Below, in pieces: positions 4,670 through 13,558 of a stretch of 64,000 nucleotides of DNA. The number at the start of each line of letters is the position of its first letter. Within the stretch, counting starts at the first letter, position 1. A model generated the notes under the pieces. That model was not told where the DNA came from and ran no database searches. It worked only from the letters and a program-made list of their open reading frames with translations. A program made the translations under genes and the position numbers. The DNA comes from Clostridia bacterium (GTDB lineage Bacteria > Bacillota > DSM-521 > Neomoorellales > JACIYF01). Location of the stretch: assembly GCA_014360065.1 (NCBI GenBank), contig JACIYF010000003.1, forward strand, positions 1,567-65,566, read 5' to 3'.

Positions 4670-5047
4670 TCATCCTCCGGCCACAGGCGGGATCAAAGTG
4701 ACTTCATCACCGGGATTAAGCGGCGTAGCCATCCCTTGCAAGAACTGGATATTGCGACCATTCACCAGTACGGTGATGTCCGGGCGCAGAAAGCCATCTT
4801 TCAAAAACGCTTCTTGGCGAAACCGTTCCCCTAGCCGCTCTCCTAAGCGTTGAATGAGCTGTTCCACATTGGCGGCATCGCAGTCTACTTCTTTTTGCCC
4901 AGCCACCAATCCAAGAAAGTTGAGCAACCGCACCCGCATACCTGGTTCGCCCCCCTCAAGCAACTGCTCATCTTCTCCACTGCCGTCGTACAACCTCAGG
5001 CTGGCAAACGCAAGTAGCGTTAACTCTTGGAACTTGAGGTACTGCAT
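4670..5047 (-). CDS. MoaD/ThiS-family ubiquitin-like sulfur-carrier protein (C-terminal Gly-Gly) with an N-terminal insertion
   Basis: It ends ...NPGDEVTLIPPVAGG-stop, the classic MoaD/ThiS tail, and has FASLR near the N-terminus. At 125 aa it is longer than usual, and its RBS is weak. Confidence 0.6.
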   Translation of the reverse strand: MQYLKFQELTLLAFASLRLYDGSGEDEQLLEGGEPGMRVRLLNFLGLVAGQKEVDCDAANVEQLIQRLGERLGERFRQEAFLKDGFLRPDITVLVNGRNIQFLQGMATPLNPGDEVTLIPPVAGG

Positions 5048-5662: not shown

Positions 5663-7264
5663 TCAGTTCCCCTTGAGCTTCCCGGCTATGGCAATGGCTT
5701 TGTCAGCCACTTCTTGAGGATTTCTGCCCAGGACTAGGATTACCCGCTCCAAATTGACCCGGTCGGGAGTGTCGATGACATCCGGGAGATAACTTTGCCG
5801 GGCCAACAGCTTGCGCAGTTCGCCATCAAACTCCTCCTCCGGCTGGATGAAATTGGAGGGCCCAGGCACGGCTACCAACCGGAGACCTAGGTCCCGACAT
5901 GCCTGGCGGATAGCCGCCGTACTGGCAAAGTTGGCCACGCACCTGGCTTCGGGGAAAAATTCCCGCACTGTGAGGATGGTGCTGCCCATGCGGCGGGAGG
6001 CGCCCATTTCTGGCTTCCCCAAGGTGGCCACTTGCCCCCGGAAACGCAGCATGCGCCCGGGAATACCAGCTACATCATCTAAGCCTTTGGCATCGGCCGA
6101 GGCATAGGCAAAGTTGGCGCCAATTTCCGGAAGCAAATCGACAATATTGGCAGACTTCAGCCTTTCAATAGCCGCCTCTAGTTCAGCAATTAATTGCGAG
6201 TGGGGGGCTTCTTCAGTTGGCTCGTTGCCCTCAGTCATGGCTGCAAAAAATACTTCCCAGAAAGGATCTTCTGGGGGAGCTACCAATGGCTCCTCTCCGG
6301 TGGCGGTAACCCATGCTCGCCCCTCGTCCTTGGGTACTACCTTTCCAACTACTGAAGCTTCAATTCCGGCCTCTTGGAAAGCCCGCAGCATAGCTTCGGC
6401 TTTTTCGGGATCGCAAGTCATGACCATGGTGCCCTCGCTGATGGAAATGTAAGGGTCAAGTCCAAAGTAATCACAGGTCACCCGTACGTCCTCTGGAACT
6501 AAAACCTTGTCTCGTTCAATCCGCAAACCCACTCCCGAGGCTTCAGCCACTTCCCATAGCCCCCGGGCCACCCCGCCCTCGGTGGCGTCGTGCATGGCGT
6601 GCACTCCTCCCACCTGCATGGCAACGGCTGCGTCCTTCACCACCGACATTTGGAAGCGGCGTTGGGAGGCTTTCTCTATCAGCTCCAGCGCTACCCCATC
6701 TCGGCGCATCCTCTTGCCAAGCTCAGAAGCCAAGATCCCGCTAGCCTCAATGGCCGCTCCCTTGGTAACGATGACCGCATCGCCCACCTGAGCCCCGCTG
6801 GGCAGCACAAACTCACTTCCGGTTCCCCAAACAGTTATGCCGCCGATGGTGGGAGTCACTACCGAGGGATAAAAGCCAGTGTGCCCACCTACAATGGCAA
6901 TACCTAGCTCGCGTGCGGTATTGCTAATACTTTGAACTAGCCTCCGGATGTAGTCTTCTGAAGTACCTGGAGGTATGAGCAAGGAATAGGTCATAAACTG
7001 AGGCTTAATGCCCAAGACAGCTACGTCGCTAGCGCCAATGTGAACGGTAAACCAACCGAAATCCTCGGGAGTAGAGGCGGGCGAAGGAAAAATCGGGTCC
7101 TCGGCAATGGCCAAGTACTGCTCGCCCATTTTTAAGATGGCGGCGTCCACTCCCATGGTAGGCCCTACCACCACCTGGGAAGATTCGGCTCCGATGAAAG
7201 GTAGAATGGATTGGCGAAAGAAACTGTCGTTAACTTTTCCGATCATGGTTTTCATATTGTGCAT
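5663..7264 (-). CDS. Fusion of an AIR-synthase-related (PurM/ThiL/HypE superfamily) domain with a C-terminal ThiN-type thiamine-phosphate synthase domain
   Basis: The N-terminal half carries GPTMGVDAAIL, AEDPIF, VGGHTG and HAMHDATEGG (PurM-like fold). The C-terminal ~190 aa (LLPEIGANFAYA...VAGIPGRM...) resembles the ThiN domain of archaeal ThiDN. A TPP riboswitch lies directly upstream. Confidence 0.7.
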   Translation of the reverse strand: MHNMKTMIGKVNDSFFRQSILPFIGAESSQVVVGPTMGVDAAILKMGEQYLAIAEDPIFPSPASTPEDFGWFTVHIGASDVAVLGIKPQFMTYSLLIPPGTSEDYIRRLVQSISNTARELGIAIVGGHTGFYPSVVTPTIGGITVWGTGSEFVLPSGAQVGDAVIVTKGAAIEASGILASELGKRMRRDGVALELIEKASQRRFQMSVVKDAAVAMQVGGVHAMHDATEGGVARGLWEVAEASGVGLRIERDKVLVPEDVRVTCDYFGLDPYISISEGTMVMTCDPEKAEAMLRAFQEAGIEASVVGKVVPKDEGRAWVTATGEEPLVAPPEDPFWEVFFAAMTEGNEPTEEAPHSQLIAELEAAIERLKSANIVDLLPEIGANFAYASADAKGLDDVAGIPGRMLRFRGQVATLGKPEMGASRRMGSTILTVREFFPEARCVANFASTAAIRQACRDLGLRLVAVPGPSNFIQPEEEFDGELRKLLARQSYLPDVIDTPDRVNLERVILVLGRNPQEVADKAIAIAGKLKGN

Positions 7265-7334
7265 GGCAGGAAAGCTGCCCGTCTTCCTCCTTCTTTCAAA
7301 GTGGTTTTATCCCAGAAAGTCCTCGCCCCCGCCT

Positions 7335-7370
7335 AAAAAATTCGGCCCCTCACCTGGGTGGCGAGCGGCC
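7335..7370 (-). terminator. Intrinsic terminator forming the expression platform of the TPP riboswitch
   Basis: On the minus strand, GGCCGCTCGCC-ACCCA-GGTGAGGGGCC is followed by GAATTTTTT. It sits between the aptamer and the ATG at 7264. Confidence 0.7.
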
Positions 7371-7385
7371 GCTGTCATTTGCAAT

Positions 7386-7483
7386 CACGGTCTATCTCTC
7401 CCTCCGCAGGTATTACCCTGATCAGGTTCAGCGGGTCAGGTGCTCACAGCCCTTTCTCAGCCCCTAACAGGGGCTCCCCGTCG
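7386..7483 (-). promoter_or_regulatory. TPP (THI-box) riboswitch aptamer
   Basis: The minus strand reads GGGGAGC-CCCUGUUAGGGG-CUGAGA...ACCCGCUGAACCUGAUCAGGGUAAUACCUGCGGAGGGA. This matches the conserved THI-box elements GGGGUGC/CUGAGA/ACCC/AACCUGAUC/UAAUACC/GCG-AGGGA. Confidence 0.9.
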
Positions 7484-7522
7484 TTTCTAAGTATGCAATT
7501 GGTTAAACTTCCTTGTGCTTAC

Positions 7523-7551
7523 ATTATAGCACCTGAGCGCTTCGGTGCCAA
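7523..7551 (-). promoter_or_regulatory. Sigma-A-type promoter for the riboswitch-controlled thiamine operon
   Basis: On the minus strand, TTGGCA is followed by 17 nt and then TATAAT, with a TG at the extended -10 position (TGcTATAAT). It lies about 40 nt upstream of the aptamer. Confidence 0.6.
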
Positions 7552-7554
7552 CGC

Positions 7555-7872
7555 TTATTCTTCCACCTCTACCGCCGTACCGCTGGCAGTAATCATGAGC
7601 ATTCCTTCCCGGACTACTTCATAGTCCAAGTCTACTCCCACTACAGCATTGGCGCCGGCCCGCCGGGCTTGATCCAGCATCTCGCTCAAGGCAATTTGCC
7701 TGCCTTCGGATAGTTTAGATTCATAGGCTCCAGAGCGGCCGCCAACGATATCAGTAATGCTGGCCAGAAAATCCCTAACGATATTGGCTCCCATGATGGC
7801 CTCCCCGAAGACTACCCCCAGATAACGCTTGATCCGCCTACCCTCAATGGTATTGGTGGTGGTAACAATCAT
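7555..7872 (-). CDS. YbjQ/UPF0145-family protein (putative heavy-metal-binding)
   Basis: At 105 aa, [22 protein letters not shown]...GGRSGAYE...[15 protein letters not shown] is the typical UPF0145 pattern. Confidence 0.85.
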
Positions 7873-8038: not shown

Positions 8039-9178
8039 ATGCGCACCGGAATCGCCAACCTGCCCTTGCATGGGGGAAAATGTCCACCCTGGCTGTTCGA
8101 GCGGATGACCAAGCTGGCTGCCGCTTTGGTGGAAGTGATGGTGGCCGACGCCGGCCCGGATCGGGTACTGCAGCGCCTGGCCGACCCCTTCTGGTTTCAG
8201 GCCTTTGGTTGCGCTTTAGGCTTCGACTGGCATTCTTCTGGCCTTACTACCACTGTCTGCGGCGCCCTGAAGGAAGCCCTAAAGGGCAGGGAATGGGATA
8301 CCGGCATCTTCATCGCCGGGGGTAAGGGCAAGACCAGCTTGCGCACTCCAGAAGAACTGAGGGATTATGGGGAAAGGTTTCCCCTGGCAACCAATCCCGA
8401 TAAGTTGATTTATGCCAGCCGGATGGCCGCCAAGGTAGACAATACCGCCGTCCAAGACGGCTATCAGCTTTATCACCACACTTTCCTTTTCACCGCCTCC
8501 GGGTTATGGGCGGTAATTCAGCAGGGAATGAACGAGTCTCTACGTTGGGCCCGCCGCTATCACTGGCTTAGTACCAAGGTTAGCGATTTCACCTGCGAGC
8601 CGCACCTGGCCGTGTGCTGCGACCACACCGCCATCACCCTGAACTTGGTAGCGGAGGAGAGCGGGGCCGCCCGCCAGGTTATAACCGAAGTAGCAGGAGA
8701 AAAACCGGAAAAGACTTTAGCAGACTTAAAAAAGCTGGGCGAGGCCCTTCGCGCCGCCCGCCGACCCAAGCTACCGGCCGGCACTCCCGCTTCCCAAGCC
8801 TCGCTTACTTTGAGCCTTCCCGCTACCCATCCCATTACTTTTCGCGACCTGCACCCCTCTAGCCTCAACCGAGTATTACTCCGGACCTACTCCCGGCCGC
8901 CCAAAGACTTCAATCAGCTCCTAGCTACTGAGGGGTTGGGGCCCAAATCATTGCGCGCGCTGAGCCTCTTGGCCGAGCTAGCCTACGGCACTCCGCCCAG
9001 TTATCGCGACCCAGTTAAGTATAGCTTTGCCCACGGGGGCAAAGACGGCTACCCTTACCCGGTTGATCGTAAGACTTATGATCAATCGGTGGAATTCCTG
9101 CGCCAAGCCCTCAACTCAGCCAAGGTAGGGCGCACCGAGAAGATTCAAGCCTTCCGGCGCTTAGCCAAGTTTGGCTAG
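8039..9178 (+). CDS. DUF763-family protein
   Basis: The N-terminus MRTGIANLPLHGGKCPPWLFERM...DPFWFQAFGCALGFDWHSSGLTT matches my memory of DUF763. RBS GAGAGAGAAGGG lies upstream. Confidence 0.65.
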   Translation: MRTGIANLPLHGGKCPPWLFERMTKLAAALVEVMVADAGPDRVLQRLADPFWFQAFGCALGFDWHSSGLTTTVCGALKEALKGREWDTGIFIAGGKGKTSLRTPEELRDYGERFPLATNPDKLIYASRMAAKVDNTAVQDGYQLYHHTFLFTASGLWAVIQQGMNESLRWARRYHWLSTKVSDFTCEPHLAVCCDHTAITLNLVAEESGAARQVITEVAGEKPEKTLADLKKLGEALRAARRPKLPAGTPASQASLTLSLPATHPITFRDLHPSSLNRVLLRTYSRPPKDFNQLLATEGLGPKSLRALSLLAELAYGTPPSYRDPVKYSFAHGGKDGYPYPVDRKTYDQSVEFLRQALNSAKVGRTEKIQAFRRLAKFG

Positions 9179-13144: not shown

Positions 13145-13172
13145 AGAAGCCCCGGTGCCTAGCACCGGGGCG
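13145..13172 (-). terminator. Hairpin downstream of the cold-shock gene
   Basis: CCCCGGTGC-TAG-GCACCGGGG (13150-13170) lies 30 nt after the csp stop. The U-tract is poor (CUUCU). Confidence 0.45.
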
Positions 13173-13199
13173 ATTTGGCTAACTTCGGATCGGCTCGCG

Positions 13200-13397
13200 T
13201 TAAAGCCTTACTACGTTAGCAGCCTGTGGGCCTCGCGGACCTTCGACAATATCGAACTCCACTTCCTGGCCTTCGTCTAGGGTCTTAAACCCCTCACCTT
13301 GGATGGCAGAGAAGTGAACAAACACGTCACTACCGTCATCCTTGGTAATAAACCCATAACCCTTCTTTTCGTTGAACCATTTGACCTTGCCGTGCAT
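13200..13397 (-). CDS. CspA-family cold-shock protein
   Basis: [17 protein letters not shown]...DVFVHFSAI contains the RNP1 and RNP2 motifs. Length is 65 aa. Confidence 0.95.
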
Positions 13398-13458
13398 GTT
13401 GAAGCATTCCTCCTAAACTTAACTCCCTCGGCCTTTAATCTGGCCCGCGAGTGACTTC

Positions 13459-13487
13459 ATTATAACCCTAGCTACAGATACTGTCAA
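13459..13487 (-). promoter_or_regulatory. Consensus sigma-A promoter of the cold-shock gene
   Basis: On the minus strand, TTGACA is followed by 17 nt and then TATAAT (both perfect). It lies about 60 nt upstream of the ATG, leaving a 5' UTR. Confidence 0.7.
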
Positions 13488-13558
13488 ACTTTTAGAACCA
13501 CTTGTGTAAATTTCCAGCCGGGTCGCTGGTCCTCGCTGGAAATCCCATGCTGAGCCAC

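Follow-up and report, generated by a model that had tools for sequence, protein, structure and literature searches.

AIRSx, a thiamine-linked clade of the PurM superfamily, fused to a ThiN domain in a riboswitch-controlled gene of a Clostridia bacterium

Background

The biosynthesis of thiamine in bacteria is regarded as essentially solved. Yeast THI6 is a thiamine phosphate (TMP) synthase fused to a thiazole kinase, and in archaeal ThiDN proteins a kinase-type ATP enzyme with a ribokinase-type fold, the HMP/HMP-P kinase ThiD, which supplies substrate, is joined to the condensing domain ThiN; ThiR, an archaeal repressor, has a non-catalytic ThiN domain. In the PurM superfamily, ThiL is an ATP-dependent enzyme of the same pathway, and HypE carries a carbamoyl or cyano group on its C-terminal cysteine. 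A gene fusing a domain of this superfamily to a ThiN domain resides in the DNA analyzed here, a window of 64,000 nucleotides of a Clostridia bacterium (assembly GCA_014360065.1, contig JACIYF010000003.1, positions 1,567 to 65,566; contig C166 in this analysis). The source genome is a 3.04-Mb draft in 242 contigs, 99% complete, with 3.3% contamination, and appears to be related to Moorella (Bacillota).

Though the pathway is held to be solved, relatives of the N-terminal domain, named AIRSx in this analysis, reside at no fewer than 590 loci in many bacterial and archaeal phyla, are controlled by thiamine pyrophosphate (TPP) riboswitches and are fused to the condensing enzyme of the pathway. Full-text searches of the literature gave no description of the family, and its members are labelled HypE, AIR synthase, ThiL or "thiamine-phosphate synthase family" in databases. 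The locus is real and cleanly organized, its reading as a ThiL is wrong, and AIRSx is an uncharacterized, widespread group tied to thiamine.

The fusion protein and the AIRSx clade

An initial annotation of the window, made from the letters of the DNA, had described a 533-aa open reading frame (ORF) fusing an AIR-synthase-related domain with the PurM/ThiL/HypE fold to a ThiN-like domain. Pfam profile searches confirmed both halves of the protein (P0001): AIRS (residues 39-143, 67.2 bits), AIRS_C (residues 159-317, 93.8 bits) and ThiN (PF10120, residues 361-524, 126.5 bits, profile positions 1-164 of 165) are all matched far over their cut-offs, and the C-terminal domain is ThiN on profile search. 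The AlphaFold2 model, based on 42 relatives, has a mean predicted local distance difference test score of 90.7, and features two domains connected by a flexible linker at residues 346-352. Structure comparison agrees with Pfam on the N-terminal half, which has the two-domain PurM fold and matches HypE, ThiL and SelD with a structure-match probability of 1.00. Since relatives begin at Met7 (MIGKVND, nucleotide 7246), and residues 1-6 are disordered and of low confidence in the model, the true start may be at 7246 instead of 7264.

The N-terminal domain reaches the cut-off of none of the three family profiles closest to it, scoring 122.1 bits against HypE (TIGR02124, cut-off 251.6), 102 against ThiL (TIGR01379, cut-off 184.15) and 71.6 against SelD (TIGR00476, cut-off 125); the HypE proteins of the same genome score 438-444 bits to the HypE profile. 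Identity is 26% to the HypE and 24% to the ThiL of the genome, and 45-67% within the family, across bacteria and archaea. In a maximum likelihood tree all family members, including a more distant archaeal group (tier-2) and an AIRSx-ThiD fusion, form one clade with support 87/90, sister to HypE, with ThiL outside. P0001 falls within this clade, shares the high identity of its members, and carries the motifs AEDPIFP, HIGASD, GGHTG, HAMHDATEGG, ISEGT and DxFW. Residues D40, E55, D56, D80, H128, D226, C264 and W336 are invariant in AIRSx. The N-terminal Cys/Sec-Lys loop of SelD is not present, the N-terminus MIGKVND having no cysteine.

Solved structures rank in the order HypE (template modelling score, TM, 0.79-0.84), ThiL (0.73-0.78) and SelD. 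HypE (PDB 2z1e, 3vys) is the best match both in fold and in sequence (122 bits to the NCBIfam profile, 95 bits to 2z1e), and shares with AIRSx the two-domain organization and the acidic ATP-binding motifs. The cysteine at the end of HypE is, however, missing in AIRSx: stand-alone members end in a FWExFF (FWEVFF) helix, and in the fusion protein the chain runs on from this helix to the linker and to ThiN. Unlike HypE, AIRSx was never seen beside hyp genes in the loci inspected, and is controlled by TPP riboswitches and fused to ThiN. ThiL (PDB 3c9t) has superfamily, fold, pathway and ATP-dependence in common with AIRSx, but the two co-occur, sometimes within one operon, and ThiL branches outside the group made up by AIRSx and HypE. 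The N-terminal domain is a member of a separate, widespread, ATP-dependent clade of the PurM superfamily tied to thiamine, which is neither ThiL nor HypE, and annotation of the gene under either name should be avoided.

Expression signals of the fusion gene

The near-consensus promoter, the THI-box aptamer and the terminator which the initial annotation had placed before the ORF are all borne out (Table 1). The promoter matches the consensus at 11 of 12 positions, the mean number of such sites in shuffles of the region being 0.2. The aptamer matches the RF00059 covariance model over its full length (model positions 1-105) with 72.6 bits, above the gathering score of 54.3 (E 2.3e-12), and is one of two such matches in the genome. 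The hairpin (approximately 7371-7343), followed by six U residues at 7339-7334, lies between aptamer and start codon, and is found in both minimum-free-energy and centroid folds, although a simple pattern scan did not list any terminator. The fusion gene is a monocistronic thiamine gene, probably repressed by TPP. In the proposed mechanism the aptamer, when bound to TPP, would permit formation of the terminator hairpin and transcription would stop, whereas at low TPP the 533-aa protein would be produced. A GGAGG sequence is found 21 nt 5' of the ATG at 7264, with a small hairpin (GGCAG-CTTTC-CTGCC) in between.

Table 1. Position of the fusion gene, its domains and expression signals, and of neighboring features, in the window
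Feature	Positions	Strand	Basis
CDS (coding sequence), AIRSx-ThiN fusion (P0001), 533 aa	5663..7264	-	ORF and Pfam domains
AIRSx domain, residues 7-345, PurM-superfamily, ATP-dependent	6230..7246	-	AIRS and AIRS_C; ends in conserved DxFWExFF helix
ThiN domain, residues 361-524	5693..6184	-	Pfam, 126.5 bits; alignment to 2pb9, 68 bits
Arg425 (codon CGC) at the position of the ThiN catalytic His	5990..5992	-	Alignment to 2pb9 and to fusions
Sigma-70-type promoter, TTGGCA / 17-nt spacer / TG-extended TATAAT	7523..7551	-	11/12 consensus matches
TPP riboswitch aptamer (THI element, RF00059)	7382..7490	-	Covariance-model match
Expression platform, GC-rich hairpin and U6 tract, intrinsic-terminator type	7334..7371	-	RNA folding
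GGAGG and small hairpin before the ATG	7265..7290	-	
ThiS/MoaD-family small protein (PF02597), ending GG	4670..4939	-	56 bits
YbjQ-family protein (PF01906)	7555..7872	-	
DUF763 protein	8039..9178	+	441 bits
cspA thermoregulator (RF01766)	13145..13492	-	84.6 bits, gathering score 78

Distribution and gene context of AIRSx

To collect AIRSx loci, each GTDB species was represented by a single genome and scanned for a sequence pattern, which gave at least 590 loci. The bacterial members among the matches listed are from Bacillota, Fibrobacter, Megasphaera, Spirochaetota, Chloroflexota, Aminicenantes, Zixibacteria and Brocadiaceae, the archaeal ones from Methanoregula, Methanothrix, Methanomassiliicoccales, Archaeoglobus, Thermococci, Bathyarchaeia, Asgard, Caldarchaeales and Aenigmatarchaeota. 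Gene context was counted in 69 of the best 80 loci, those in which the AIRSx ORF was retained; in 11 GC-rich loci of the 80, as in some tier-2 loci, greedy ORF calling lost AIRSx to longer antisense ORFs.

AIRSx is fused to ThiN in 25/69 loci, in the order AIRSx-ThiN in bacteria and ThiN-AIRSx in archaea, is directly adjoined by a stand-alone ThiN gene in 19/69, and is found with thiE and/or thiD in at least 8/69. Operons of the Desulfotomaculia type in Bacillota have the order riboswitch-AIRSx-thiD-thiE-HAD, with AIRSx in the slot usually held by thiM. Other operons read riboswitch-thiXYZ-thiED-thiC-AIRSx, AIRSx-thiE-thiD-tenA, and, at locus L074, thiD-thiE-thiM-thiL-tenA-AIRSx/ThiN; tenA or thiXYZ genes are found in four AIRSx operons. 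At L141, a minimal cluster, thiC and thiL lie on one strand, divergent from AIRSx-ThiN. A TPP riboswitch is located directly upstream of the AIRSx gene or operon in 11 of the 12 bacterial loci tested, and also at L018 and L020. Further fusions join AIRSx to an isochorismatase-type hydrolase and, in the 625-aa protein P0122 (AIRSx-like-ThiD), to ThiD; the tier-2 archaeal subgroup, nested in the clade, lies directly beside ThiDN or ThiD (loci L155 and L157 are among these arrangements). The gene denoted HAD encodes an MtnX-like phosphatase of the HAD-IB type (HAD, haloacid dehalogenase). Work by Hasnain in 2016 reportedly identified phosphatases of this kind, encoded in similar clusters, as TMP phosphatases.

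A conserved gene block surrounds AIRSx in Methanomicrobia and Methanothrix (loci L096, L100, L103, L104, L112, L113, L126, L128, L135 and L137). It includes NifS, a helix-turn-helix protein of 110 aa whose tail is rich in Cys, a PP-loop sulfur transferase resembling LarE, FdhD, a gene similar to NcsA/TtuA, ThiN and AIRSx, as well as a BioB/LipS2-like radical S-adenosylmethionine (SAM) protein of 335 aa. In Asgard archaea (Jord- and Freyarchaeia; L105, L107, L108 and L124) ThiN-AIRSx is followed by genes for QueG/RDH-like Fe-S and peptide-deformylase-like proteins, neighbors which hint at formyl-group chemistry near AIRSx. The role in thiamine metabolism, proposed by the initial annotation for this AIRS-related family, thus holds well beyond the single locus, in riboswitches, ThiN fusions and thi operons. 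AIRSx is a thiamine-pathway gene which acts beside TMP synthase and is not ThiL.

Thiamine genes in the source genome and in other carriers

The source genome has a canonical thiL (319 bits, cut-off 184), a thiE (198 bits) found together with thiC downstream of the only other TPP riboswitch of the genome, a thiD, and a Thi4-type thiazole synthase. ThiG, ThiM, thiamine pyrophosphokinase (TPK) and TenA were not found in the searches of this genome, and ThiN resides only in the fusion gene. The standard de novo route is complete without the fusion gene, and the main argument for AIRSx-ThiN as a replacement of ThiE plus ThiL is therefore removed. Other genes of the AIRS fold in the genome are two hypE, selD, purM, purL, and one fusion of the sll0787 family. 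The thiD ORF (C210:46857-48119) encodes 420 aa, the last 150 or so having no Pfam match.

Thiamine genes were also monitored in 50 other carriers of AIRSx, a set spanning many phyla, including many metagenome-assembled genomes (MAGs), and having no matched background. ThiL scores over the cut-off in 34-36 of them, TPK is found in 13 of 15 genomes lacking ThiL, and either ThiL or TPK in 48/50. ThiC resides in 37/50 carriers, ThiD in 38/50, often adjoining AIRSx, and ThiM in 22/50. Thiazole synthases are much rarer (ThiG 3/50, Thi4 11/50), so that 36/50 carriers have no known enzyme of this type. ThiG, Thi4 and ThiM are all missing in 17/50, and ThiD is found in 13 of these 17. ThiD is missing in 12/50 carriers, 9 of which have ThiC. 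Five ThiD-less genomes were rechecked at an E value of 1e-3: four, including a complete Methanoregulaceae chromosome, have no PF08543 match, and in the fifth (G245) the sole match scores 22 bits, under the cut-off. In the complete Methanoregulaceae chromosome (G224, C1:1822433-1823237) thiL seems to be split in two adjacent frames scoring 139 and 77 bits, which may be a frameshift of the long-read assembly. Pathway variants of 2,228 gut genomes have been tabulated (PMC6593275, Table 1), and neither the thiazole gap nor the ThiD gap of AIRSx carriers is among them.

A background was provided by 151 Halobacteriota genomes, of which 16 are close AIRSx carriers. Thi4 is present in 2/16 carriers vs. 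108/135 other genomes, neither Thi4 nor ThiM in 11/16 vs. 12/135, and ThiD is missing in 3/16 vs. 12/135. In Halobacteriota the association of AIRSx with the lack of thiazole genes is strong, that with the lack of ThiD weak. The same depletion of thiazole synthases is observed, across many phyla, in the set of 50 carriers.

Catalytic residues of the ThiN domain

In the alignment to P. furiosus ThiDN (2pb9) the histidine of the GASDH motif is replaced in P0001 by Arg425 (Table 1), in the column of catalytic His341 of P. calidifontis ThiDN. Arg404 of the PGR motif is conserved, and is the equivalent of catalytic Arg320 of the same protein. The roles of these residues reportedly go back to work by Hayashi in 2014 and Hwang in 2017. 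The same arginine is found at position 425 in relatives 97% and 87% identical, and is thus not a sequencing error. The position varies among the 79 bacterial AIRSx-ThiN fusions compared (Y 48, H 17, N 11, R 3) and in ThiDN proteins (H 9, Y 2, T 1), and is His in 19/19 stand-alone ThiN found beside archaeal AIRSx. The Arg of the PGR motif is invariant in 79/79 bacterial fusions; the Met which follows the His position is invariant in 36 fusions and in the 19 stand-alone ThiN compared, and is found in 6/12 ThiDN.

Given the replacement of the catalytic His, condensation may fall to ThiE in the source organism, and the synthase activity of the fusion protein is putative. The ThiN domain could be a non-catalytic module, binding thiamine phosphate as in ThiR, which delivers a ligand to AIRSx or senses it. 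The change of a His reported to be essential, shared by close relatives, its retention in no more than 17 of the 79 bacterial fusions, and the presence of ThiE in the genome speak for such a module. ThiR likewise has a ThiN domain whose catalytic His may be missing. In contrast to ThiR, however, the fusion protein has no DNA-binding domain, the partner of its ThiN is an enzyme domain, and two residues are conserved, the Arg of the PGR motif and the Met adjoining the His position. Loss of catalysis is also at odds with the full-length profile match, with bona fide ThiDN having Tyr or Thr at this position in 3/12 cases, and with the His kept in all stand-alone archaeal ThiN, and is on the whole somewhat unlikely.

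Possible reactions of AIRSx

The AIRSx half probably supplies a building block of thiamine, most likely the thiazole half. The best explanation, to be held tentatively, is an ATP-dependent AIRSx step which feeds the thiazole moiety to TMP synthase. AIRSx, sitting beside this synthase, would make or activate one of its two substrates, either phosphorylating hydroxyethylthiazole or a related thiazole precursor, a task performed elsewhere by ThiM, or, alternatively, running an ATP-driven step in an unrecognized thiazole route. The fused ThiN, or a ThiE encoded elsewhere in the genome, would condense the product with hydroxymethylpyrimidine diphosphate (HMP-PP) to TMP, and canonical ThiL would convert TMP to TPP. 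In the source genome, which makes thiazole via Thi4 but lacks ThiM, the AIRSx-ThiN module would therefore be a thiazole-salvage or feeding arm.

Supply of the thiazole moiety is favored by the location of AIRSx in the thiM slot in Bacillota, the depletion of ThiG and Thi4, the 17 carriers with no thiazole source, and the recurring archaeal block of sulfur and radical SAM genes. AIRSx occupies the place of ThiM in operons of the thiM-thiD-thiE type, and its fusion to a TMP synthase would mirror THI6; the two proteins are, however, unrelated in sequence and fold. ThiDN offers a parallel in that it too joins a substrate supplier, a kinase-type ATP enzyme, to the same ThiN domain. It differs in the fold of the ATP domain, ribokinase-type in ThiDN and PurM-type in AIRSx, and in domain order, AIRSx preceding ThiN in bacterial fusions and following it in archaeal ones; ThiDN is itself present in many carriers.

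Several observations weigh against thiazole supply. Gene context and phyletic pattern are the whole basis for the choice of substrate, and we know of no enzyme of the PurM superfamily which phosphorylates an alcohol. ThiM coexists with AIRSx in 22/50 carriers, once in the same operon (L074), and Thi4 is present in 11/50 as in the source genome. The 12 carriers lacking ThiD, 9 of which have ThiC, fit a kinase acting on the pyrimidine phosphate (HMP-P) better. The catalytic His of ThiN is replaced by Arg in P0001 and by Tyr or Asn in most bacterial fusions. Many carrier genomes are MAGs, some "ThiC" matches in methanogens may be BzaF-type paralogues, and the nominal Fisher p of about 1e-7 in Halobacteriota overstates the case, because the carriers among archaea probably come down to a small number of related lineages and are not independent. 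A broader claim, that AIRSx and a dedicated ThiN make up a third, unrecognized thiazole route in anaerobic bacteria and archaea lacking ThiG and Thi4, with a new thiazole kinase or an ATP-driven ring-forming step, and with cysteine desulfurase, LarE-like sulfur transferase and radical SAM genes as partners in methanogens, is, taken as a whole, quite unlikely.

The 12 carriers just mentioned count in favor of the view that AIRSx is an HMP-P kinase (HMP-P to HMP-PP) standing in for the second activity of ThiD, AIRSx-ThiN being the counterpart of ThiDN. The fusion partner is the same as that of ThiD, phosphorylation of a phosphate monoester is the chemistry of ThiL, to which AIRSx is related in fold, genomes of the Methanoregula type lack any ThiD-family match while having ThiC, ThiM, ThiN, AIRSx and ThiL, and at L141 thiC and thiL are divergent from AIRSx-ThiN; two genomes with Thi4 but neither ThiC nor ThiD (G240 and G249) are also counted in its favor. 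Yet ThiD resides in 38/50 carriers, directly beside AIRSx in several operons, tier-2 members adjoin ThiDN, and the fusion of one member of the clade to ThiD lowers the likelihood of a ThiD-like role. Loss of ThiD is moreover only weakly enriched in Halobacteriota carriers, and an HMP-P kinase would leave the 13 ThiD-positive carriers without a thiazole source. An HMP-P kinase is the main rival to thiazole supply, at a rather low probability. An activity of the PurM/HypE type, in which ATP serves to activate the oxygen of an amide or formamide in a compound related to thiamine, would agree with the closest relatives in sequence and fold, which are HypE-type dehydratases. The reaction could start from an N-formyl thiol intermediate and re-close or build the thiazolium ring, or could process formylaminopyrimidine in salvage, and may be part of an unrecognized sulfur-dependent thiazole route. 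The NifS/LarE-like/FdhD/NcsA-TtuA/radical SAM block around AIRSx in Methanomicrobia and Methanothrix, the peptide-deformylase-like gene following AIRSx-ThiN at Asgard loci, the isochorismatase-type hydrolase fusions, the tenA or thiXYZ genes in four operons, and the absence of both known thiazole synthases in most carriers all accord with such chemistry. The support comes, however, from gene context alone, and the candidate substrates are hypothetical in vivo; the sulfur-gene block is confined to few related archaeal lineages, where gene order may be coincidental, and AIRSx is the sole gene of no assigned function in bacterial operons, too little for a de novo route. Chemistry of this type is unlikely.

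The initial annotation had proposed that ThiN makes TMP and the fused domain, a divergent ThiL-like kinase, converts it to TPP. The PurM/ThiL fold, the 102 bits to TIGR01379, and the frequent fusion of consecutive enzymes suit this proposal, which is nevertheless not supported: the score lies under the ThiL cut-off, the domain belongs to a clade of its own with ThiL outside the group of AIRSx and HypE, the genome has both thiL and thiE, ThiL or TPK resides in nearly all carriers, and thiL is clustered with AIRSx at L074 and L141. In Bacillota, AIRSx lies beside the HAD-IB phosphatase in genomes with TPK and without ThiL, which implies that TMP is first turned to thiamine and only then to TPP, a route that the action of a TMP kinase would cut short. 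A TMP kinase is hence highly improbable, and as the general role of AIRSx it is excluded. Of the two observations that were jointly to refute the proposal, the presence of both thiE and thiL was made, while the N-terminal domain lies outside HypE and SelD; the broader fallback of the annotation, another ATP-dependent thiamine activity, stands. Three candidates were discarded. AIRSx as a replacement of ThiL is ruled out by the ThiL of the genome and by the 48/50 carriers with ThiL or TPK. Processing of ADP-thiazole, the product of Thi4, does not agree with Thi4 being found in only 11/50 carriers and being anticorrelated with AIRSx in Halobacteriota. A thiamine kinase was set aside, as it would form a futile cycle with the HAD-IB phosphatase and TPK in Bacillota, and leave the fusion to a synthase unexplained.

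In a third of the carriers, which have TMP synthase, the origin of thiazole phosphate is not accounted for by any known enzyme, and a quarter have no ThiD. Assigning the reaction of AIRSx would close both gaps in the pathway, and correct predictions of vitamin B1 auxotrophy in methanogens, syntrophs, and rumen and gut anaerobes. The range of reactions of the PurM superfamily could also be extended by a new type.

Neighboring genes and other observations

The ThiS/MoaD-like gene lies on the same strand as the fusion gene, some 600-720 nt downstream; it probably starts with the ATG at 4939 and then encodes 89 aa, vs. 125 aa for the maximal ORF. Its membership in the same unit is not supported, since at the locus of the closest relative (L063) the genes at this place are on the opposite strand, and neither an E1 enzyme nor any further thiazole gene was found nearby. 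The upstream neighbors encode a YbjQ-family and, divergently, a DUF763 protein, and have no link to thiamine at other loci.

Elsewhere in the genome (C65:2318-4550) the sll0787/MSMEG_0567-type fusion, which joins GNAT and AIR-synthase-like domains, adjoins a radical SAM gene of the MSMEG_0568-like kind. To this radical SAM family the protein encoded beside archaeal AIRSx is distantly related, and two systems with no relation to each other thus both pair an AIRS-like enzyme with a radical SAM protein. The gene selD is present in two nearly identical copies on two short contigs (C239:8367-9359 and C110:1173-2165), a sign that the draft may contain heterogeneous strains or a region assembled twice. 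The cspA thermoregulator match in the window spans the leader and the coding region of a cold-shock protein gene.

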